A stretch of DNA of 32,034 nucleotides from Candidatus Pacearchaeota archaeon (GTDB taxonomy: Archaea; Nanobdellota; Nanobdellia; Pacearchaeales; GW2011-AR1). How positions within the stretch are numbered: the stretch's first letter is position 1; every line of letters begins with the position of its first letter. Under the pieces are notes generated by a model. The model saw nothing but the letters and a program-made list of their open reading frames with translations. It ran no database searches and had not been told where the DNA came from. Shown piece after piece: positions 246-30,848 of the stretch. The translations under genes were made by a program, and so were the position numbers. The stretch spans positions 1 to 32,034 of the forward strand of contig JBJKQQ010000001.1 of the NCBI GenBank assembly GCA_046705325.1, given 5' to 3'.

Positions 246-905
246 TTGATGGACGGAAAAGCGGCCGATAATGTAAAGAAATTCTTCAAGAAATTTTGGT
301 TCCTGCTCTGGAAAGACAATAGTTTCAAGGGTTGGATTTTTTCGCTGGTTTTCATTTTCGTCGCTATAAAGTTCATTTTTTTCCCGCTTTTGAGTCTGGT
401 TTCCGGAAGCTCGCTGCCTCTGGCAATAGTTGAGTCATGCAGCATGTACCATCAGGGAGACGTTTTTTCTAATTTCAATTCGTGGTGGCAGGGGCATGAA
501 AATTATTATGTGCGATGGAATGTGACTAAACAGGAGTTTGAAGGTTTCAGGTTCGAGAACGGATTTGACAAAGGGGACATCATGCTCGTTGTCGGGACAA
601 AGCCGCAAAACGTCCATATCGGAGATATAATAGTATTCAATTCGGAAGGGCAATCCACGCCGGTGATTCACAGGGTGATGAACATTACTATCGAAAACGG
701 GACTTATTATTTTTCTACAAAAGGGGACAATAATCCTGTGCAACTCCATTATGGAAACAACGTGCATAACATTGATGAGACCCACATAAATCAGAACCAG
801 CTTGTTGGCAAGGCAGTTTTCAAGCTCGCGCCGTTTATCGGTTGGGCGAAGCTGATTTTCTTTGATGCGCGAAGCGACGATCCTGGATTATGCAAGAGTA
901 CATAA
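246..905 (+). CDS. signal peptidase I, archaeal/ER Sec11 type (S26B)
   Basis: N-terminal TM segment followed by the catalytic Ser box VESCSMYH. Also GDIIVF, VIHRV and the TKGDNN box typical of archaeal type I signal peptidases. The track start is TTG at 246; the ATG at 249 is the more likely start. Confidence 0.8.
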   Translation: MMDGKAADNVKKFFKKFWFLLWKDNSFKGWIFSLVFIFVAIKFIFFPLLSLVSGSSLPLAIVESCSMYHQGDVFSNFNSWWQGHENYYVRWNVTKQEFEGFRFENGFDKGDIMLVVGTKPQNVHIGDIIVFNSEGQSTPVIHRVMNITIENGTYYFSTKGDNNPVQLHYGNNVHNIDETHINQNQLVGKAVFKLAPFIGWAKLIFFDARSDDPGLCKST

Positions 906-14924: not shown

Positions 14925-15120
14925 CAAATCAAAATGGCAGACAATTTAGTTGAAAAAACAAAATCCGAACTACTCGTAGAAGCTACTCTTGAGGCTCAGC
15001 AAAATATGTATCAATTTAATTTGCATCGCAGTATTGTCGAGCGGGAGATTCGCGGAGCCTATGATAAAGTCTATGGAGCCTCTAAAACAGATTAATCTCC
15101 TCGGTTAAATTTATAACTTC

Positions 15121-15335: not shown

Positions 15336-15926
15336 ATGGTGATGTTTTCTGACTTCTTGAGTTTGCTGGCTTTTGTGCAGGCGCAGGGTTATTGGATCAT
15401 TTTCGTCTTGATTCTCGCGTTGGGGCCTGTCGCGGTGTCGGCTGCCGCTTTTGCGTCTTCGTTCGGAATTTTTAACATTTTCATTGTCTTCATTCTTGCA
15501 TTCGTTGGAACTTCGCTAGGAGATTTTTTTTGGTATTCTATCGGCGAGTTTGGAAGGGTCTCGTTTATCGACAGGTATTTCAAAAGGCTGATGAAGAATA
15601 AAACTCTTGTGAAAATTGAGAAATTGCTTGAGAAAAATTCCTTCAAGGCGATTCTTTTGATAAAACTGGTTCCTCCTTTGCCTGTGCCCGGCTTGATTTT
15701 TGCAGGGATGGACAAGTTGAGGTTGAGGAAGTTTCTTTTTGCTTCGCTGGCGATAAACTTTATTTCAAGCATAGTGTTTGTTTTACTTGGATATTATTTC
15801 GGGGTTGTAATCGGCAAGCTGCTTTTCAGCCCGTTGGAAATTTCGCTTGGGTTTCTTACAATTTTTTCTTTGATGTTTGTTTATCGCAGAAGATATTCCT
15901 TTAGGTTTTATCGAAAGAAGAATTAG
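15336..15926 (+). CDS. DedA / SNARE-associated (VTT domain) membrane protein
   Basis: Multi-TM protein with a DedA-like core (GTSLGDFFWYSIGEFG ... LIKLVPPLPVPG). Ends in TAG. Confidence 0.55.
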   Translation: MVMFSDFLSLLAFVQAQGYWIIFVLILALGPVAVSAAAFASSFGIFNIFIVFILAFVGTSLGDFFWYSIGEFGRVSFIDRYFKRLMKNKTLVKIEKLLEKNSFKAILLIKLVPPLPVPGLIFAGMDKLRLRKFLFASLAINFISSIVFVLLGYYFGVVIGKLLFSPLEISLGFLTIFSLMFVYRRRYSFRFYRKKN

Positions 15927-15970
15927 TCCTGAATACAAATTTTTAAAAAAGAAGTTTTCCCTTTTCTTGA

Positions 15971-16207
15971 ATGGATGAGAATGAAAGCAGGAGATTTTTG
16001 TGCGAGGTTCACATAGATGATTTTCTTTGCGCAAGGGCTAAAACAGGTTATGAAAATAAGAAAGATACTTTTTATCACGGAAAGGTTATTCAAATAAATC
16101 CCGGCAATGTGATTATACGCGCTCATGGAAGCGGGTTATCGAGGCAGGTGGTTAATCTTCTTGAAGTAAATGAATATGCGCTCAAGGCACACAAGTATTC
16201 TTTTTAA
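15971..16207 (+). CDS. hypothetical protein
   Basis: 78-aa ORF with no recognisable motif. Convergent with the next gene. Confidence 0.35.
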   Translation: MDENESRRFLCEVHIDDFLCARAKTGYENKKDTFYHGKVIQINPGNVIIRAHGSGLSRQVVNLLEVNEYALKAHKYSF

Positions 16208-16208
16208 T

Positions 16209-16448
16209 TCAATTAGCTTTTTTCTCGAGCCTTTCGGTGTAGCCGCACTTGCCGCATCGCAACATGACGAGTTCGTTTTCGTCGGAGTATTGCGCGCCGA
16301 GGTTTATAATTTCAGCTTTGCCGTAGCCGCACTTTTTGCATTTGTGCTTGTAGGTCGCGAAAACGTCGCCGCCTTTGGCAATTCCTTTTCCCCTCGCCGC
16401 TTCGTGGATGATTTTCTCGTCTTCGATCAACTTCTTTTTTGCTGGCAT
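16209..16448 (-). CDS. stand-alone TFIIS-type C4 zinc-ribbon protein (TFS C-domain paralog)
   Basis: CKKCGYGKAEIINLGAQYSDENELVMLRCGKCGYTE has the same 24-residue spacing between its CxxC pairs as the TFS C-ribbon at 14613..14924, and retains an SDE loop. The N-terminus is a short basic tail instead of the first ribbon. Confidence 0.55.
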   Translation of the reverse strand: MPAKKKLIEDEKIIHEAARGKGIAKGGDVFATYKHKCKKCGYGKAEIINLGAQYSDENELVMLRCGKCGYTERLEKKAN

Positions 16449-16474
16449 TTTTGTTAATTTCCTAAATCATAAGG

Positions 16475-16482
16475 TATTTAAA
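16475..16482 (+). promoter_or_regulatory. TATA box TATTTAAA upstream of the tRNA-like repeat array
   Basis: Lies 32 nt upstream of the first GGCTCCATAGC copy (16507). A/T-rich boxes also lie 37-39 nt upstream of copies 2 and 3 (16564-16571 and 16670-16677). Confidence 0.4.
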
Positions 16483-16506
16483 GAATTTTCCCAAGTTTTT
16501 AGATAT

Positions 16507-16585
16507 GGCTCCATAGCTTAGTGGGTTTCTTTTTAGAAAAAAGAAACTACAGTGTTAGAAAAGCTAAAATACCTTCGCTATGGAG
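16507..16585 (+). other. tRNA-5'-end repeat unit 1 (truncated tRNA-like stem-loop)
   Basis: GGCTCCATAGCTTAGTGGG matches the tRNA-Lys 5' end, then diverges. Contains a perfect 10-bp hairpin at 16525-16547. GCTATGGAG (16577-16585) is the exact reverse complement of CTCCATAGC (16509-16517). No anticodon arm or T arm. Confidence 0.5.
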
Positions 16586-16602
16586 AATCAATCAAAATAA
16601 AC

Positions 16603-16688
16603 GGCTCCATAGCTCAGCGAGACAACCTACGGTTTTCTTCGCGTAACTTTCCCTTAAATTTTTAAACTGTAATTTATTCGCTACGGAG
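16603..16688 (+). other. tRNA-5'-end repeat unit 2 (truncated tRNA-like stem-loop)
   Basis: GGCTCCATAGCTCAG is identical to the tRNA-Lys 5' end, then diverges. GCTACGGAG (16680-16688) complements CTCCATAGC (16605-16613) with one A.C mismatch. Confidence 0.5.
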
Positions 16689-16706
16689 TGTTAATTTAAC
16701 AAAGAT

Positions 16707-16792
16707 GGCTCCATAGCTCAGCCTGGTCAGAGCACTGGACTCTTAAATCAGGAGTTATCCAGGTGTCGGGGGTTCAAATCCCTCTGGGGCCA
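16707..16792 (+). tRNA. tRNA-Lys(CUU) with an 11-nt intron at the canonical 37/38 position
   Basis: Acceptor stem GGCTCCA/TGGGGCC, D arm GCTC-AGCCTGGTCA-GAGC, anticodon stem CTGGA/TCCAG. The 18 nt between the anticodon stem strands resolve to loop CTCTTAA plus the insert AATCAGGAGTT, whose GGAG pairs with loop CUCU. T arm GGGGG-TTCAAAT-CCCTC, discriminator A, no encoded CCA. Confidence 0.85.
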
Positions 16793-16807
16793 TTTAACTT
16801 AATATTT

Positions 16808-16940
16808 GCGCCCGCACACTAAGGTAAATTCACTTCGTGAATTTTGGCATCGACGCTCGCGGATTATTTTAACTTCGAAATCGCCTTCGGCAGATTTCTC
16901 CGTTTTCTAAAATTAACGGCATAAACTCCCGGATAGGCGC
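16808..16940 (+). ncRNA. GC-rich structured element D (candidate ncRNA or repeat, related to 30675-30848)
   Basis: Ends pair as GCGCC(16808-16812)/GGCGC(16936-16940). Hairpin AAATTCAC-ttc-GTGAATTT lies at 16826-16844. Hairpin GAAATCGCC-ttc-GGC(A)GATTTC lies at 16877-16898. CCGTT...AACGG forms another stem. Shares CACTTCGT and AAATCGCCTTCGGC with the element at 30.7 kb. Confidence 0.45.
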
Positions 16941-17040
16941 AACTTTTGTTAATAAAAATTAATCTCCCTCTTCTTCATTTCCTTTTTCAGAATTCTTATT
17001 CTTCAAAGCAAACTCAGCCATCGAAAAGTCGTTATTGTTT

Positions 17041-17367
17041 TTAGTTTTTGCCGCTTTCCGATAACTTCGCCCAATATTCTGCCCTTTCGATGTTTGCGTG
17101 GAAATGAGATTTTCCTTCTTTCCGAAGTTTCCAGTAGATTAGGTTTCCATTAACTGTATCTATCCTGCGCGCGACTTTTGGCAAAGCCCGCTTGGATGCC
17201 GCCCGCGCCTGCGGAGTTTTTCCGTTGATTAATCTATCTTCTTCCTCTTTTTTCCATTTCAAAACTTCCTGCATTTCTTCTTCAGTCTCTTTTAGCCGTT
17301 CTTCAATTTCTTTCTCAGTCAGCGGAGGGAATTTTATTCCCCTTTTGTATTTGTATTGCGTTGCCAT
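17041..17367 (-). CDS. hypothetical protein (charged, Lys/Glu-rich)
   Basis: ORF-track frame. The ATG at 17367 (MATQYKYKRGIKF...) is preferred over the upstream GTG at 17415. No recognisable domain. Confidence 0.4.
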   Translation of the reverse strand: MATQYKYKRGIKFPPLTEKEIEERLKETEEEMQEVLKWKKEEEDRLINGKTPQARAASKRALPKVARRIDTVNGNLIYWKLRKEGKSHFHANIERAEYWAKLSESGKN

Positions 17368-24171: not shown

Positions 24172-24432
24172 TTAATCGTAAACTTTGTCTCGCTTATCTA
24201 TTTTTATGATGACAATTCTGTTTGTTTCATAATTGACACGATAAAGCGCGCGATGTTTTCCGATTCTTATCCTGAATGTTGGAAGCTCGCAGCCGACAAT
24301 TCTTTTTGTGTCGTGCGGGATTGGATCTGAAGAAAGCATGTCAACCTTGTTCACTATTCTTTTGGCTACAAATTTGTCTTGTTTTTTGAGGAAACTTTTT
24401 GGCTGCTTTTCGTAATCTATATGAAAATTCAT
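24172..24432 (-). CDS. relE: RelE/ParE-family type II toxin
   Basis: 86 aa with the typical C-terminal pattern FRIRIGKHRALYRVNYETNRIVIIKIDKRDKVY. Overlaps the upstream small ORF by 4 nt. Confidence 0.8.
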   Translation of the reverse strand: MNFHIDYEKQPKSFLKKQDKFVAKRIVNKVDMLSSDPIPHDTKRIVGCELPTFRIRIGKHRALYRVNYETNRIVIIKIDKRDKVYD

Positions 24433-24620
24433 ATTCCTAACTCTTTTCTTAAATCCTTAGAAGAAATCAGCTTCCCCGCTTTTTCATTCTCCACGCTTTC
24501 GTCGAGCATCTTTCTTTCTTCTTCAGTCAAAATTATGTCTGGGTCTATCATGTTCGCCTGGATGTTTTTCAGGATTTTCTCCATTCGGTCTAATCTGTCG
24601 ATTATGTTTTGCTGTTCCAT
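24429..24620 (-). CDS. cognate antitoxin (RelB-like small acidic protein)
   Basis: 63-aa acidic ORF translationally coupled to relE, ending ...GKLISSKDLRKELGI. Confidence 0.65.
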   Translation of the reverse strand: MEQQNIIDRLDRMEKILKNIQANMIDPDIILTEEERKMLDESVENEKAGKLISSKDLRKELGI

Positions 24621-24725
24621 GGAATGTTAAGGATGAGATTGTATATAAGGTTTTTGGGAAGCGGCATTCAATCTTCTTTTTGGAATTATATAAAAATTTA
24701 AGTAACCTTTTTGTCTTAAGCGGAT

Positions 24726-25043
24726 ATGTTTCGGGTCTTTACGACGGATGAGTTTGACAATCGATTTGATAATCTTGATGAATCTGAGAAGAAAGCTGTC
24801 AGGAAAATCTTAGGCAAGTTGAGAGAGCAAGGAGGAATCGTCGGCAAGCCGTTAAGAGTTCCTTATTTTAGGGAGAAAAAATTTGAGGGGAAGAGATTGT
24901 ATTTCTTGGTTTACGATGATTTTATGGTTCTTTTAGCTGTTGCGATAAGCGATAAAAAAGCCCAGCAGGAAACAATAAATAAAATTCTCTCAAGGATAAA
25001 CGATTACAAAGAAATTGTTCTCGAACGTCTTTCCGGAGCTTAA
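24726..25043 (+). CDS. RelE/ParE-like toxin-fold protein, no co-directional antitoxin
   Basis: 105 aa with a RelE-like layout: FDNRFDNLDESEKKAVRKILGKL...GKPL...KRLYFLVYDDFMVLLAVAISDKK. Confidence 0.55.
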   Translation: MFRVFTTDEFDNRFDNLDESEKKAVRKILGKLREQGGIVGKPLRVPYFREKKFEGKRLYFLVYDDFMVLLAVAISDKKAQQETINKILSRINDYKEIVLERLSGA

Positions 25044-25249
25044 CCTTTCCATTCTTTTATTCTTCCATGCTTGATGTCTTCAAGACTTCTCTCTACTTGT
25101 CTGACCAGATCTATATCTATTTTTTTTATTGCAATGCCCTCTTCAATTTTACCGATTACCATTACAGAGTCTTTGTCAAGTTGCAGTTCGTTTCGAATTT
25201 TCCGGGGAATTACTATCTGGCCTTTAGAACTCATCTTTATTATTTCCAT
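25040..25249 (-). CDS. AbrB/MazE/SpoVT-family antitoxin-like DNA-binding protein
   Basis: SSKGQIVIPRKIRNELQL swapped-hairpin motif. 69 aa. Its 3' end overlaps the convergent RelE-like gene by 4 nt. Confidence 0.75.
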   Translation of the reverse strand: MEIIKMSSKGQIVIPRKIRNELQLDKDSVMVIGKIEEGIAIKKIDIDLVRQVERSLEDIKHGRIKEWKG

Positions 25250-25337
25250 GTATTAATGTAAGAACTTCTTACTTTTAAATTTTTGTGTTTGCGGGAATAA
25301 AAAATAATATTTCAGAATTGATCCTGTCTTAATGTTC

Positions 25338-25385
25338 CTTAACCCGCGCTCCGGAGAGCAGAGTTAAGCGTGTCCCGAAGGAATT
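25338..25385 (-). repeat. tetraloop-hairpin element F2
   Basis: Stem CTTAAC(25338-25343)/GTTAAG(25363-25368) encloses GCTC-CGGA-GAGC, whose loop reads UCCG on the minus strand. Followed by the same 16-mer GTGTCCCGAAGGAATT (25370-25385) as in F1. Confidence 0.5.
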
Positions 25386-25487
25386 TGTAATATTGAGAAT
25401 GAACAATAGTTTAAATAGGTTTTGGGTTTATTACTTTGGTGCGTTAAAGATTGGCACAAAATAATTAGATAAATTTTAAAAGATAAA

Positions 25488-25681
25488 CCCCTTGTAATTA
25501 TTGCTCTTAAAAAGAGCGGAGGTAAAGATGCCTTTTTTTCAGGTAAGCGCGTGAGTCCGTTTTGACAATAAAACCAAAGAGCTTAACCCCCACCATTCGG
25601 GAGAGATAAATATCGGGTTAGCGAACATACCAAGGTTCACCCGACGCGCAGAATCTCTTTGCTCATAATTATTATGGGGGG
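25488..25681 (+). ncRNA. candidate structured RNA of about 195 nt, class unknown
   Basis: Nested helices in an ORF-free region. P1 pairs 25488-25502 with 25667-25681 (CCCCUUGUAAUUAUU/AAUUAUUAUGGGGGG, one mismatch, three G.U pairs that exist only on the plus strand). P2 pairs 25514-25522 with 25656-25664. P3 is GCGCGU(25547-25552)/ACGCGC(25644-25649). Three internal hairpins are present, including GUUUU/AAAAC and CGGGU/ACCCG. Confidence 0.45.
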
Positions 25682-25717
25682 CATTAATTTTTTAAACTTT
25701 AGATTACTTATAAGTCT

Positions 25718-25876
25718 ATGAAATGGAAATTGAAATCTGGAAAAATAAAAGAGTATAAGAAGATGACTAAGGGAGAAAAAGAAGAGGTAGATAAAGGGAT
25801 TTTGAAAGGGGCTTTAATTGGAAGCATAGGGTTTGTTGTGGGAGAAATGTTGGGCAGTCGAGGGAGAAAAAAATAA
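25718..25876 (+). CDS. small Lys-rich protein with one glycine-zipper hydrophobic segment (52 aa)
   Basis: ATG 25718 to TAA 25874-25876: MKWKLKSGKIKEYKKMTKGEKEEVDKGILKGALIGSIGFVVGEMLGSRGRKK. Below the ORF-track cutoff. Confidence 0.3.
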   Translation: MKWKLKSGKIKEYKKMTKGEKEEVDKGILKGALIGSIGFVVGEMLGSRGRKK

Positions 25877-25968
25877 TTTTGGATTAAAAATCCAAATAAT
25901 CCATTTTTACGTGACTATGACAAACAAGAACGATAAAGTTATAAATAAGATTTATTATTCTTACTAAG

Positions 25969-26562
25969 ATGGAAATAGAACAATTAATACCAGAAATTCA
26001 AAGAATAGGTTGGGGTAATATTAAGCAGAATAAATATTTTGGTTATAGTATGGTTGATGCTCCGAAATTTGATTTAGTTGCAGAAAGAAAATTTACTTTA
26101 ACCAAATGGTTTCTTCTTATTAAAAAGATTAAAGTTTTTGATAGGAATGCTTACAATGAATATCAAATTGTTTTTAATATAATAAGTAAGAATGTAAAAA
26201 GTTGGATTTGGGGCAAATGTTTTTTACTATGTATAATTTGTGATGAAATTTCATCTGAATTAAAAAGAGATATGGAATCAGATAGTTTTGGATTATTTGG
26301 TGTTTTAAGGATGCAGGGAGGAGGTGGTTTAGCGTTAATTGTTGATGCTAAAACTAAAAGATGTTACGGCAAAATTCCAGCATTACCTTACGATGTTCAT
26401 AAATATTCGGGGGAATTTAAAGAAATGATTGAAGATTTTTTAGTCAATATAACCACAAAAGAGAAGAATAGGTCTAACATCAAAAAGGGTTATTGTAATG
26501 ATTGTGGTAAAAAAATTTCTAAAAATGCTCAATTTTGTTCAAGTTGCGGAGCTAAACAATAA
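25969..26562 (+). CDS. hypothetical protein with C-terminal zinc ribbon
   Basis: 197 aa ending in CNDCGKKISKNAQFCSSCGAKQ. The N-terminal domain is unrecognised. Very AT-rich. Confidence 0.5.
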   Translation: MEIEQLIPEIQRIGWGNIKQNKYFGYSMVDAPKFDLVAERKFTLTKWFLLIKKIKVFDRNAYNEYQIVFNIISKNVKSWIWGKCFLLCIICDEISSELKRDMESDSFGLFGVLRMQGGGGLALIVDAKTKRCYGKIPALPYDVHKYSGEFKEMIEDFLVNITTKEKNRSNIKKGYCNDCGKKISKNAQFCSSCGAKQ

Positions 26563-26568
26563 AGATGA

Positions 26569-26910
26569 TTGGTTCAAAATATTCTTAGGATGTTAGAAAA
26601 TTATATCCCTCAAATCGCCTTTGCTATTACTTCCATTATTGTGGTTTTCGTTAGTGATTATTTTTTTACAGGTACTAAGAATGGCGTGAAAACATTTTTA
26701 TCTGGAGTACATTTTTCAGCAAAAAAAGAAGGATTTATCGTCTTTTTAGTTAGCGTAGTGATTATAATTCCTCTTGTAACCATCTTTTTACAAAAAGGTT
26801 TAGAGTCTCTTTTGACGTCGCAAAAGGATAATCTCTTTTGGATACTTCTCCTTTTTCTAGCGATTTTTTTTATTTATTTTAACAAGAAATATTATCATCA
26901 TTGGCTTTAG
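26569..26910 (+). CDS. small 3-TM membrane protein
   Basis: The track start is TTG at 26569; the first ATG is at 26590. Three hydrophobic helices. Begins 7 nt after the preceding stop codon. Confidence 0.45.
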   Translation: MVQNILRMLENYIPQIAFAITSIIVVFVSDYFFTGTKNGVKTFLSGVHFSAKKEGFIVFLVSVVIIIPLVTIFLQKGLESLLTSQKDNLFWILLLFLAIFFIYFNKKYYHHWL

Positions 26911-26913
26911 TCT

Positions 26914-28251
26914 TTAATGTGCTGCAATAATCATAAGTAAAATAAATAACAAGAATAGTCCTCCCCCGATAGATAATCCCAAGGCAATTTTATCTTCGTA
27001 TAATTTCTTAAAAAAGCCCATGTGATTCCATAACTCATTGTACTCGTTCAGATTTTCTTTTTTGGCAAAGTACTTGTTTTGTATCCATAATTTTAGCGGC
27101 TTTGCATGTATCTCACAGATTGGAGTTTCTTTATCCAAGTAATCAATTTTTACATGATTATGACAAACAATTCTTCCGCAATCTGGACAGATGCTCATGT
27201 CTTCATAGTTATCTTCTTCTTTTTCGCATATTTTGCATTTTCTTAAAGTATCTTCTATATAAAATTGGTTGTTTCCTTTGATGTAGAATTCTTGTTTATA
27301 TTTTTGTTTTTGGATATTAATCTCATTTATCCAGATAGGCAAATAAATTGGTATGAACTGTTTGATATCTATATCTCTCTTTTTTGGAATGCAAGTCTTC
27401 GAATAGCCCACATTGTTATTACCAGTATAGTTAACATTATGAGTATGTTCTTTTATAATCTCATTTATAGCATGTTCTTCGATATCATTTTCTGTAAATT
27501 CAAATTGGATTTTATCTTTTTCATCTTGCTTTTCAATTTCTTCTGGATCTATTTTACCGGAGAAGAAAAATTCAGTTGCATCTTTATCTAAATCTTCGCC
27601 GGTTATTCCATCCATTGCTAAACCCCCAGAATTAGAATAAGTATCTATACATCCTACTGAAGTGTGGGTATCAAAATTAACATTATATTTAATGAAACAT
27701 GCAGGACTTAGCTCTAATTCTGATTTGATTATGGGGCTCTGTTCTTTGCTCCAATAAATCTTGGAGTAACCTCTTTTCGCTAAATCTTCTGCGCTTTCCT
27801 TGTCGATATTCCTAAAAGATTCATTTGTTATAATCTGGACTTTTCCATTAAGGATTACAACATTTAACTCATTGCAGAGTTTTTTCAATTTTGCCCCATC
27901 AATGAGTTCAATCTTTTGCTTAATCTCTTTATTGTAGTCTATCGCTTCTCTTGAAAAGTTTCCTGAAGTTACAACAATTCCCATAACTTCTTTACTCTGA
28001 TGTAGGTCTCCTTCGTGGCTCATGGCTCCTTGAAGTTTTTGAATAACTGGACGACCGACGAAATTTTGGTGCTTGCATTCAACTAGAATGATTTCTCCTT
28101 TCTGATTTTTCATAATTATATCTTTTCCGACATCTCTTGATTTTGAAGTGACTTTGATATCTTTATATCCTTTCTTCTTCATAATTTTAGCTACAAGTTC
28201 TTCAAATTGGTATCCGTCTAGACCATCTATCATGAGGGGTTTATCTTCCAT
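26914..28251 (-). CDS. Mrr-type restriction endonuclease domain fused to an unknown middle domain, a Cys-rich zinc ribbon and a C-terminal TM anchor
   Basis: N-terminus GYQFEELVAKIMKKKGY...SRDVGKDII...ILVECKH...VVTSGNFSREAIDY...LIDGAKL matches the Mrr_cat PD-(D/E)xK layout (D, ExK). Followed by CKICEKE...CPDCGRIVCHNH...CEIH, and ends in IALGLSIGGGLFLLFILLMIIAAH. Confidence 0.75.
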   Translation of the reverse strand: MEDKPLMIDGLDGYQFEELVAKIMKKKGYKDIKVTSKSRDVGKDIIMKNQKGEIILVECKHQNFVGRPVIQKLQGAMSHEGDLHQSKEVMGIVVTSGNFSREAIDYNKEIKQKIELIDGAKLKKLCNELNVVILNGKVQIITNESFRNIDKESAEDLAKRGYSKIYWSKEQSPIIKSELELSPACFIKYNVNFDTHTSVGCIDTYSNSGGLAMDGITGEDLDKDATEFFFSGKIDPEEIEKQDEKDKIQFEFTENDIEEHAINEIIKEHTHNVNYTGNNNVGYSKTCIPKKRDIDIKQFIPIYLPIWINEINIQKQKYKQEFYIKGNNQFYIEDTLRKCKICEKEEDNYEDMSICPDCGRIVCHNHVKIDYLDKETPICEIHAKPLKLWIQNKYFAKKENLNEYNELWNHMGFFKKLYEDKIALGLSIGGGLFLLFILLMIIAAH

Positions 28252-28383
28252 CTTTCTAAATTATCTATATTAACGAACTATAAAAAGATTCTTGCAAATT
28301 AGATTTTCTTAGAATTCTATTTTCTTTCAAAACAAAGAATTATTCTCTCTTGACTTGGGTTGTGAGGTTTGTGAGATTGAGAA

Positions 28384-28803
28384 TTAATCTTGTGATTCTT
28401 TCTTTTTCTCTAAGATTAATGATACAAATACAGTTACTGAAGATAGAAAGTATCCCAAAGTGTTTATTATATATGATCTTCTATCAGTTTTGTTTGTTGA
28501 AATATCAAAAGAATTTATTTCTGAGACTATTGATGGATTCACGCAAAGATGAGATTCCTTATTTAATTCATTTAAAGTGAGATTCAAATTGGATTGATTT
28601 GAAGAAAGAATCATTGCGCTTCCTCCGGGACCGCTAATCGCCCCAACACAATCGATAACTTTGAGATCTCCATACCCCACATTAAGAGTTGGAACATAAA
28701 TAGATTGGAAAGCTAATGCTAAATTCATGACTGTTAAAATTAAAAAAACAATTCCTAACACAAGAAGAGTAGTATTGAGAGCAAATTTAATTTTTTTGGC
28801 CAT
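28384..28803 (-). CDS. membrane or surface protein with N- and C-terminal TM segments
   Basis: Starts MAKKIKFALNTTLLVLGIVFLILTVMNLALAF, then has an Asn/Ser-rich middle and a C-terminal hydrophobic helix. Confidence 0.45.
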   Translation of the reverse strand: MAKKIKFALNTTLLVLGIVFLILTVMNLALAFQSIYVPTLNVGYGDLKVIDCVGAISGPGGSAMILSSNQSNLNLTLNELNKESHLCVNPSIVSEINSFDISTNKTDRRSYIINTLGYFLSSVTVFVSLILEKKKESQD

Positions 28804-28941
28804 ATAAATAAATCGGATGAGCTATCTTAAATTTATCTTTTTTCTAAAAGCCATCTCCAGTTAATCCCGATCTTTTTTCGGATTAGGATATTTGCAATTA
28901 ATTACGTTTTGCTTTTCAGCTGCGAGTTACAAGGGGCGAGA

Positions 28942-29208
28942 TTATTTGACAAGGGTCTGGATTTCTTCTATATGGTCTGCTACGTCTTTACCTTTTTTCG
29001 TAAGCTTTATCAGCTTAACCCGCCCCTTTTTTTCGAAAACAACCAGGCCGAGATCTTCCAAAGTCTGGAGAATCTTCACCGCGTGGCTGTACGTGCAATC
29101 AACTTCTTTTGCCAGAACACTGCCATATCTCATCCTTGTATTCTTCTTTAGGTAGACCAGCATCAACGCCGGCTTTCTCCTGAAAAAGATGTCAAAGTTG
29201 TCTTTCAT
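28942..29208 (-). CDS. winged-helix transcriptional regulator (ArsR/TrmB-like)
   Basis: 88 aa with YGSVLAKEVDCTYSHAVKILQTLEDLGLVVFEKKGRVKLIKLTKKG, giving an HTH plus wing. Confidence 0.7.
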   Translation of the reverse strand: MKDNFDIFFRRKPALMLVYLKKNTRMRYGSVLAKEVDCTYSHAVKILQTLEDLGLVVFEKKGRVKLIKLTKKGKDVADHIEEIQTLVK

Positions 29209-29323
29209 TTTGAGATGTATGGTTTAATGTATATATCCAGACAGTAGCGTGCTTTTAAATGTTTTGTAGAAGGTATTTTGGAAAGGTTATGTTGGAATTT
29301 CACCATCGGAAAATGGGAAAATT

Positions 29324-30151
29324 TTACAAATTATCAAGCGGACTTGTTATGTTTTTTAACTGATTATTTGCAACGTGAGTGTAAATCTCCGTGGTCTTGG
29401 ATGAGGCGTGGCCGAGCAGCTTTTGGATGTATCTCAAGTCTGTTCCATTTTCCAGAAGATGCGTCGCAAAACTATGGCGAAGCATGTGCGGATGGATTTT
29501 CATGCCAATTTTGCCTCCAAGTCTTTCAAGAATTTTTTGGACCGACTTTTTGGTGTATTTCCCGTTTCGGCCTTCGAAAACGTAATCTGTTGAGAAATTA
29601 AAATTACTGTAATACTTTAACAGATCCTCTTTAAGATTTGGCGACAGTAAAGTTATCCTGTCTTTAGCGCCTTTGCCCTGCCTGACAAAAATCAGGTTGT
29701 TGTCAAAATCGATGTCTCTCCTTTTAAGATTCAAGAGTTCGGAAAGTCGCAAACCTGAAGAGTAAAGAAATTCTATTATCAATTTGTGCTTTAGATTGGC
29801 GCAGGAATCAATTATGAGTTTTATCTTTTCTTTTGAAATCACTTGCGGAAGCTTCTTCTCTTTTTTCATTAGTGGAATTTCGTCCGCAGAGAATGGTCTT
29901 TTCAAGACTTCTGAAAAGAAAAACTTGAGCGACATTTGCCTTAACCTCAAAGTGTTTCTTGCTTTTTCTTGCGACAGCAAATAGGACTTAACCGCTTCGT
30001 TGTCCAGGTTTAATCTACTTTTGTCGATAAATTCAAGAAATTTCTCCACATTGTAAGAATAAGATTTTATCGTCTGCGGGCTGAAACCCTTTAATTTACA
30101 CCTTTCAACAAGCTTGTCAAGAAAGCTTTGCTTAGAAATCAGATAACTCAT
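29324..30151 (-). CDS. xerA: tyrosine recombinase, XerA/XerCD family
   Basis: N-terminal SAM-like domain. Catalytic residues in GLRLSEL (R), GKGAKDR (K), HMLRHSFATHLL (H-x-x-R), LLGHAS (H) and TEIYTHV (Y). Length of 275 aa. Confidence 0.9.
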   Translation of the reverse strand: MSYLISKQSFLDKLVERCKLKGFSPQTIKSYSYNVEKFLEFIDKSRLNLDNEAVKSYLLSQEKARNTLRLRQMSLKFFFSEVLKRPFSADEIPLMKKEKKLPQVISKEKIKLIIDSCANLKHKLIIEFLYSSGLRLSELLNLKRRDIDFDNNLIFVRQGKGAKDRITLLSPNLKEDLLKYYSNFNFSTDYVFEGRNGKYTKKSVQKILERLGGKIGMKIHPHMLRHSFATHLLENGTDLRYIQKLLGHASSKTTEIYTHVANNQLKNITSPLDNL

Positions 30152-30674: not shown

Positions 30675-30848
30675 CGAACGAAATCCATACCCACGAGGAC
30701 GCTGCGGCGTCAGCTCGTGCCTCACTTCGTTCGGAAGGTAAACAACGGCTTAACGGAAAATTCCTCTGCCTATCGGCAGTCGGCTTGTTGCCGTCGGAAT
30801 TTTCCCAAATCGCCTTCGGCGACTTCGTTAAATTCCGATGTTAAGTCG
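30675..30848 (+). ncRNA. GC-rich multi-helix element E (candidate ncRNA or repeat, related to 16808-16940)
   Basis: Nested perfect helices: CGAACGAA(30675-30682)/TTCGTTCG(30726-30733), then CACGAG/CTCGTG, then GACGC-ugcg-GCGTC. Further helices are CTTAAC(30749-30754)/GTTAAG(30840-30845) and GAAAATTCC(30756-30764)/GGAATTTTC(30796-30804), the latter enclosing CTGCC/GGCAG and CGGC/GCCG hairpins. A TCGCC-uuc-GGCGA hairpin is also present. Confidence 0.5.

Follow-up and report, generated by a model that had tools for sequence, protein, structure and literature searches.

In the 32,034-nucleotide (nt) stretch of a Candidatus Pacearchaeota genome that was analysed as a whole (the window), the gene for the transfer RNA (tRNA) Lys with anticodon CUU is preceded by two short copies of its own 5′ end. 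The 15-mer GGCTCCATAGCTYAG occurs three times, at 16507, 16603 and 16707, with a spacing of 96 and 104 nt; with two mismatches permitted there is no further copy elsewhere in the window, and three matches were found in none of 100 shuffled sequences. All features of the locus described below lie on the forward strand. Copy 1 (16507–16521; repeat search and promoter spacing) corresponds to tRNA positions 1–15 with C13 changed to T, and copy 2 (16603–16617; repeat search) to the same fifteen positions. The repeat search, ARAGORN and Rfam bear out the statement of the first-pass annotation, which was made from the letters of the DNA, that the third copy alone runs on into a complete, intron-containing tRNA-Lys(CUU). 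This functional gene (16707–16792; ARAGORN, and Rfam RF00005 at 58.4 bits) is the only tRNA called by either program and has no encoded CCA. Its 11-nt intron, AATCAGGAGTT (16746–16756), sits at the canonical position 37/38 in an hBH motif, and a bulge–helix–bulge (BHB) scan places the end of exon 1 at 16745 and the start of exon 2 at 16757 (h = 5, H = 4). The layout is not an assembly artefact, because an independent assembly (Logan SRR31309758, here L001) shows it as well: L001 corresponds to window positions 15684–16786, is identical at 1102 of 1103 positions, and spans copy 1, copy 2 and the tRNA minus its last 6 nt in the same arrangement. Other related loci and contigs, numbered in the same way, come from about 24 lineages of Woesearchaeota and Nanoarchaeota.

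Each of the two orphan copies opens a longer unit. Alignment defines unit 1 (16507–16602, 96 nt) as copy 1 followed by an 81-nt insert and shows it to be the orthologue of the single unit present in L003, L009 and L010 (84% protein identity to the window), which have unit 1 only; against the L003 unit it scores 90 where the null is 18, with 62 matches, 8 mismatches and 14 gap columns. Unit 2 (16603–16706, 104 nt) is copy 2 followed by an 89-nt insert and is, from alignment, a diverged paralogue of unit 1; it has AAAT..TTAAA..TTATTCGCTAYGGAG..AA..AACA in common with the L003 unit (p = 0.001), is absent from all other loci compared and was found in this genome only. The window holds no further copies of the units. 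The sole difference between the window and L001 falls at 16555, inside unit 1, where the window has T and L001 has G, the L003 allele.

Both copies are followed by the conserved 12-mer TTCGCTAYGGAG (16574 and 16677), and the complementarity to the tRNA 5′ end described earlier for this sequence was recovered, perfect in unit 1 and with one A·C mismatch in unit 2. The closer of unit 1, TTCGCTATGGAG (16574–16585), contains GCTATGGAG, the complement of copy positions 3–11; an inverted-repeat search identifies it as the perfect reverse complement of CTCCATAGC, and it pairs with all three copies. Together with the six bases that follow it, this closer forms an 18-nt sequence, TTCGCTATGGAGAATCAA, that is the same in L003. 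The closer of unit 2, TTCGCTACGGAG (16677–16688), carries its one A·C mismatch to the window's copies in GCTACGGAG and is a perfect complement of the tRNA form with G7, which is the form of most relatives. As first proposed, each unit can close into a stem-loop, with folds of −24.1 kcal/mol for unit 1 (z −3.6) and −20.2 kcal/mol for unit 2 (z −2.3). An alternative pairing of each closer with the next downstream copy, across a loop of 17–19 nt, is equally possible. Set against shuffled interiors, the energy of the duplex between copy and interior is exceptional in unit 1 (ΔG −16.4, p = 0.002), unit 2 (p = 0.017) and the L003 unit (p = 0.008), where units 1 and 2, being paralogous, do not count as two independent events; the same complementarity is not significant in the units of L004, L023, L032 and L034. 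Unit 1 also holds the perfect 10-bp hairpin that had been noticed at 16525–16547; the inverted-repeat search gives A/T-rich arms at 16525–16534 and 16538–16547 (GTTTCTTTTT AGA AAAAAGAAAC), with a T5 run in the 5′ arm. In L003 its equivalent (739–757, reverse strand) is a perfect 8-bp hairpin, each arm being 2 nt shorter. Perfect pairing kept through this 2+2-nt indel could reflect selection or palindrome-driven mutation.

The native tRNA-Lys promoter (16475–16495), conserved in relatives, consists of a TATA box, TATTTAAA (16475–16482), and a conserved downstream box, GAATTTTCCCAAG. The TATA box, previously placed 32 nt upstream of unit 1, starts 32 nt and ends 24 nt upstream of copy 1 and is indeed the clade's conserved tRNA-Lys promoter. 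In the loci without units (L008, L012–L016, L022, L025, L026, L030 and L067/68) the sequence gATATTTAAAGAATTTTCyCAA ends 22–26 nt before an intact, single tRNA-Lys(CUU), and in L017–L019 and L024 the same box lies about 34 nt before the tRNA, again with no extra copies. The promoter is followed directly by the intact tRNA, as an empty site, in at least 14 lineages. The window's promoter stands before copy 1 at the clade's usual 24-nt distance. Copy 1 is therefore the former 5′ end of the tRNA gene, displaced but still joined to the native promoter, and the units were inserted between it and the gene body.

This spacing recurs at other genes of the clade. Some 14 tRNA genes, which cover several isotypes (from L016, L022, L025, L027–L029, L031, L033, L036, L041 and the window), have a TATA box, TTTAAA or TTTATA, that ends 22–26 nt before the mature 5′ end, which suggests, as far as promoter position can tell, that tRNA transcription in the clade is near-leaderless. 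Such transcription has been reported for Nanoarchaeum equitans. The 10-nt longer spacing in L017–L019 and L024 indicates that some 5′ processing probably exists in the clade. The A/T-rich boxes reported before copies 2 and 3 are present, but they do not stand at the usual 24-nt spacing. One, CTAAAATA (16564–16571), corresponds to CTTAAAT in L003 and to CTAAAAGG in L023; the L003 and L023 units have TGCTTAAATGCGTTAyTCGCTA in common, and the L023 box is separated from the tRNA downstream by 24 nt. A second, TAATTTAT (16670–16677), ends 29 nt before the tRNA, a spacing that differs from the usual 22–26 nt, and another, TTTTTAAA (16659–16666), lies upstream of it, both being read from the sequence. 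All three are candidate internal promoters.

Insertions at the same place recur across the group. Seven lineages carry 5′ insertions. By sequence these make up at least four classes, none of them detectably similar to another, and the orphan copies all run precisely from tRNA +1 to position 13–15. Besides the loci with unit 1, a different insert of 45–46 nt is found in L004–7, L021 and L020; L023 has a 62-nt insert, the 3′ part of which has TGCTAAAAGGCGGTTACTCGCTA as in unit 1 (p < 0.001); and the distant L032 and L034 have inserts of 94 and 51 nt. A mirror structure occurs at the other end of the gene in L015/L026, L023 and L034, where the tRNA is followed by an insert of 33–43 nt and then by an exact or near-exact copy of its last 11 nt that ends at the discriminator (L015 3260–3310, reverse strand; L023 2040–2094, reverse strand; L034 9663–9706, forward strand). 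These 3′ trailers are homologous, with a GGAAyCGArCGAGAAATTTC core (p < 0.0003), though the lineages are distant, and the stretch that pairs with the 3′ copy is CCGA:UCGG in L023 and UCGA:UCGA in L034. The trailer could, on this comparison, be a conserved minihelix-like element.

The orientation and content of the gene vary as well. In L004 and L020 the whole module of promoter, copy, insert and tRNA is inverted relative to the neighbouring Zn-ribbon gene, and the tRNA is inverted too in L002, the closest relative (91%), in which the contig ends inside the tRNA. The length of the intron at position 37/38 differs by lineage, being none, 11, 13, 43, 52 or 57–60 nt (variable-intron loci surveyed: L012, L017, L023, L028, L029 and L031–L034); L020 has the same 11-nt intron as the window, L003, L004 and L008 have no intron, and the 52-nt form is common to L012, L017 and L023. 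The tRNA-Lys locus is a hotspot of rearrangement. The tRNA-Lys gene is also inverted relative to the Zn-ribbon gene in L027, L028, L032 and L034, and in L065 and L066 it no longer adjoins that gene. At L029 (9829–9838, reverse strand), CACAGAGCCA abuts the tRNA start, and together with GGCTCTGT it makes a perfect 8-nt palindrome whose halves are parted by one A. It resembles either the 3′ terminus of a tRNA copy located upstream or a closer that lacks a spacer.

The fixed boundaries at the gene terminus, the unrelated insert classes, the mirrored arrangement on the 3′ side, the inversions and the relatives' empty sites all argue for a site-specific process of the attachment-site (att) type. 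We therefore favour, tentatively, the reading that the units are scars of recurrent, small, site-specific insertion or duplication at the tRNA D-loop. The broader statement, that they are evolutionary leftovers and neither tRNA pieces nor a conserved RNA gene, we consider probable. Recombination-site remnants had been listed among the possible explanations in the first-pass annotation; presence and absence in relatives, the position between promoter and gene and the recurrent boundaries make remnants of recombination or duplication the best supported of its suggestions, but no integrated element was identified. We propose the following course of events. The ancestral promoter would set the start of transcription at or next to tRNA position 1, and each event would cut the gene in the D-loop, after position 13–15. 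The old first 14–15 nt would stay with the native promoter, while 45–96 nt of other DNA and a fresh copy of positions 1–15 would be placed before the gene body, as in site-specific insertion with a 14–15 bp duplication of the att or target site. For unit 2, the source would be either another such event or unequal crossing-over that used the 15-nt repeats. The inserted DNA would since have been lost almost wholly, and the remnant between the native promoter and the tRNA would either be transcribed as a leader of about 200 nt that needs removal or be bypassed by way of the A/T-rich boxes in the units. The 12-mer is part of a segment common to one unit family, and its complementarity may lock each orphan copy in a hairpin. 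A duplicate of the promoter region was considered as the source of the units and rejected, as the similarity of unit interiors to that region is not significant.

Several observations weigh against scars of insertion. In none of the approximately 24 lineages is a copy separated from the tRNA by an integrase gene, another mobile-element gene or an insert longer than 96 nt. An attP-like junction was sought as closer–spacer–copy. The exact closer–spacer–copy pattern in JGI metagenome contigs gave the chromosomal locus of the L003 species and one chance match, and exact-pattern scans of IMG/VR gave 22 chance matches in high-GC phage contigs, or nothing. The orphan copies are also far better preserved than neutral decay would predict: of 112 positions, only 3 deviate from the tRNA of the same lineage (binomial P = 0.003 given 10% site divergence, with sites and lineages treated as independent), and they track the lineage-specific states of the tRNA at position 3 (L032), position 5 (L034) and position 7 (the A7 group). 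L004 and L020 have a homologous insert, yet both copies have G7 in L004 and A7 in L020. This conservation needs gene conversion of a 14-nt island, a very recent or repeated origin, or selection. The 3′ inserts, furthermore, are kept between lineages in which the neighbouring protein is about 50% identical to that of the window, and unit interiors in L003, L023 and L032 show weak collinear alignments to the tRNA body or intron (p = 0.02–0.04), a hint in favour of plain tandem duplication.

Those alignments belong to the first of the rival explanations, in which part of the tRNA gene itself was duplicated in tandem and then decayed, without any foreign DNA being involved. The duplicated part would run from position 1 to about the T-loop on the 5′ side and from the T-loop to position 73 on the 3′ side; the outer pseudo-copies would lose their interiors by deletion and drift, and the closer would be a relic of the variable loop and T-stem or of the 3′ acceptor region, where some complementarity to the 5′ strand existed from the outset. 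In this explanation's favour, no insert exceeds the size of a tRNA. The L003 unit resembles the window's anticodon loop, 11-nt intron and T-arm (p = 0.04), the L023 unit its own 52-nt intron (p = 0.03), and the L032 unit, through GCTTGGTA...ACTCT..AATAAA, the stretch from D-loop to intron start (p = 0.04). T-loop-like TTTCGA or TTTCAA stands just before the 11-nt copy in the 3′ units, and the perfect 5′ acceptor complement plus A that abuts the tRNA start in L029 fits the 3′ end of an upstream copy. The alignment p-values are, however, unadjusted for about 20 tests, and the orthologous unit 1 of the window gives p = 0.99. A search with nhmmer and a profile of the clade's tRNA-Lys found no unit interior at E ≤ 1000, whereas full and half tRNA controls scored 82 and 30 bits. 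Every class has the same sharp border between a near-perfect 14-mer and unrecognisable sequence, and neutral decay should have eroded the 14-mer too. We regard tandem duplication as the main rival, possible but rather unlikely.

A second explanation credits selection: the units would form a cis-acting leader in which the hairpin of copy and closer controls folding or 5′ processing of the pre-tRNA-Lys. The hairpin could sequester the decoy acceptor strand and so keep it away from its 3′ counterpart, or it could be a switch in competition with cloverleaf formation. The above-chance complementarity in units 1 and 2, the identity of the closer and its six flanking nucleotides between the window and L003, the perfection of the unit 1 hairpin despite its indel and the near-invariance of orphan copies that track the tRNA are all in its favour. 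So are the pair at position 7, which is A-U in unit 1 and G-C in L023, and the exchange of CCGA:UCGG for UCGA:UCGA in the 3′ units. The competition is thermodynamically real: in ViennaRNA folds of a transcript from copy 1 to the 3′ end, copy 1 takes part in the acceptor stem at P = 0.97 (window, L003) or 0.30–0.75 (elsewhere). Misfolding of this transcript would be expected, except where it is scarce or dealt with co-transcriptionally. Copy 1 is thus predicted to compete with the true 5′ strand; when the closers are scrambled in silico, copy 1 still wins the acceptor stem. In a hand-made alignment of six units, 77% of the cells between copy and closer are paired in register as against 27–45% when the two are slid, but covariation amounts to a single two-sided change, at position 7 (A-U versus G-C), and 292 of 500 shuffles equal that. 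The complementarity, moreover, is not significant in four of the other units, as given above. The first-pass annotation had argued for selection on the pairing; the identical closer in L003 lends this weak support, whereas covariation does not exceed that of shuffles and most relatives have no unit. With units missing from at least 14 related lineages, the comparison does not support a conserved functional element, and we judge a selected leader or decoy function possible but unlikely.

Somewhat less likely again is a clade-wide system in which the orphan ends are maintained, either as RNA decoys or folding guards or as decoy attachment sites for integrating elements. Such a system could govern the choice of strand for the acceptor stem and the formation of the 5′ end, or could divert elements from an essential single-copy gene. 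It would explain why the copies are identical to their own tRNA, the deep conservation of the 3′ units and the persistence of complementary partners.

We think it very improbable that copy 1 is the true mature 5′ end, with the insert and the inner copy either removed or tolerated as a D-loop insertion. This proposal draws on the near-leaderless spacing (22–26 nt) at about 14 tRNA genes of the clade, which is kept in front of copy 1 in the window, L003, L020 and L023 (L004: 30 nt), on the fold that pairs copy 1 with the 3′ acceptor strand, and on the nature of the sole changes in copy 1 (C13>U in the window, C6>U in L034), both of which still permit G·U pairing. No BHB, strict or relaxed, allows in-register excision, however. 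At in-register junctions the central 4-bp helix forms only through the palindromes AGCU (positions 9–12) or GGCU (positions 1–4), and in five lineages the flanking helices there are 0–1 bp; the BHB scan of the five recovers the canonical 37/38 introns only, and introns at the units were rejected with it. The inner copy is perfectly conserved too and is contiguous with the gene, and the promoter that lies 10 nt farther away in L017–L019 and L024 makes a 5′-processing activity probable.

Split and non-canonical tRNA pieces, another suggestion of the first-pass annotation, can be set aside almost completely: the idea that the units are 5′ pieces of split or tri-split tRNAs, joined in trans to 3′ halves encoded elsewhere, finds a DPANN host, the group in which split tRNAs were found, and a tRNA 5′ end with its own A/T-rich box in each unit, but an entire tRNA-Lys(CUU) gene that begins with the same sequence lies directly downstream, the fragment is just 15 nt, its complement pairs with the fragment itself and not with a partner leader, the window holds no complement of the unit interiors and no partner 3′ tRNA piece, Rfam and the profile do not see the interiors, no canonical or relaxed BHB was found in five lineages, and the units are missing in most relatives.

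Partial tRNA copies beside tRNA genes are already known. Split, tri-split and permuted tRNA genes occur in Nanoarchaeum, Caldivirga and Thermofilum. The present locus resembles them in its DPANN and archaeal context, in the order of tRNA 5′ fragment and complement and in the promoter-like box upstream; it differs in having no BHB, a fragment of only 15 nt, an intact adjoining gene and a complement to the fragment itself. In Escherichia coli the tyrT distal repeats are 178-bp units that end in the last 19 nt of tRNA-Tyr (rtT RNA, RF00391); they are thought to arise by unequal recombination and are co-transcribed with the tRNA. The likeness lies in tandem units beside a tRNA gene, each with a terminal tRNA fragment, but the tyrT repeats are bacterial, lie on the 3′ side, have longer units and share no sequence relation with those described here. 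tRNA pseudogenes and tandem arrays also place truncated tRNA-derived sequence, most of it decayed, beside the parent; here there is no profile-level similarity to tRNA beyond the 14–15-mer, and the 14-mer is near-identical to the parent.

Archaeal integrating elements also leave partial tRNA copies, as repeats (PMC9897764). The archaeal virus SNJ2 has a 14-bp att core at the 3′-distal end of tRNA-Met (PMC5861418), and PYG1 of Pyrococcus has 44-bp flanking repeats at a tRNA gene (PMC5861418, PMC9897764). As in these systems, the window has a direct repeat that copies a terminal stretch of a tRNA gene and has the gene end as its border, with partial and complete copies, a core of about 14 bp, presence or absence between relatives and inversions of the locus. 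The differences are as clear. The duplicated part is the 5′ end and not the 3′ part, so that the native promoter is cut off from the gene; the copies are 45–96 nt apart, against 9–23 kb in those systems; and there are two tandem units, no integrase or element genes and no attP-bearing element among the sequences searched. Partial tRNA copies are normally read as the footprints of large elements at the 3′ part of a gene. This footprint is at the 5′ end, tiny and tandem, it parts an essential single-copy tRNA from its native promoter, and it recurs, mirror 3′ structures included, at one tRNA-Lys(CUU) gene across Woesearchaeota and Nanoarchaeota. In the literature searched we found no description of a version that is tandem, confined to the 5′ end, shorter than 100 nt, promoter-separating, recurrent in a clade and identical to the tRNA, and it appears to be new in that combination. 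As scars only, the units would still mark a recombination hotspot and point to a pitfall in annotating the tRNAs of DPANN genomes. Copies maintained by selection would bear on how archaea with leaderless tRNAs cope with disruption of a gene, and on the origin of fragmented tRNA genes.

Around the units the gene order kept in relatives runs from a VTT-domain protein through the Zn-ribbon protein, tRNA-Lys and a metallophosphoesterase to DUF2127 and an Lhr helicase. The homologues of the adjoining Zn-ribbon protein (79 amino acids, TFS/RpoM-like) are labelled Nanoarchaeota or Woesearchaeota. There are no open reading frames (ORFs) of 50 or more amino acids within the units; one mechanical ORF (16170–16457) overlaps the flanking Zn-ribbon gene only. 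An array of clustered regularly interspaced short palindromic repeats (CRISPR) was considered and rejected, the repeats being 15 nt and the intervening sequences, of 81–89 nt, having a common motif of 12–15 nt; no cas gene is among the 20 ORFs scanned on the 3′ side of the window and in the flanks. Rfam finds only the tRNA above threshold, its next match being RsaF at 24 bits (gathering score 60), which we take as chance, and rtT (RF00391) has no match at E ≤ 10 in 16400–17050.

At 15071–15080, CTATGGAGCC matches the tRNA 5′ end over 10 nt in inverted orientation, at chance level (E about 2); it sits in a 53-amino-acid ORF, within a stretch of about 400 nt that L008 lacks. The only recombinase of the window is the housekeeping XerA (29324–30151; 236.9 against the NCBIfam cut-off of 220), 12.5 kb away. 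It closes a cluster (24172–30151) of a ParE-like toxin, a MazE-like antitoxin, an Mrr-type restriction endonuclease fusion, a winged helix–turn–helix protein and XerA itself, possibly a defence or accessory island of small size, which is not bordered by tRNA-derived repeats. Downstream of the tRNA, ahead of the next gene, there is a G+C-rich stretch of about 140 nt (16806–16945) with GCGCC...GGCGC ends, which is absent in L003, has no Rfam match and folds no better than shuffles (z −1.2). It has the 14-mer AAATCGCCTTCGGC in common with a G+C-rich patch at 30807–30820.

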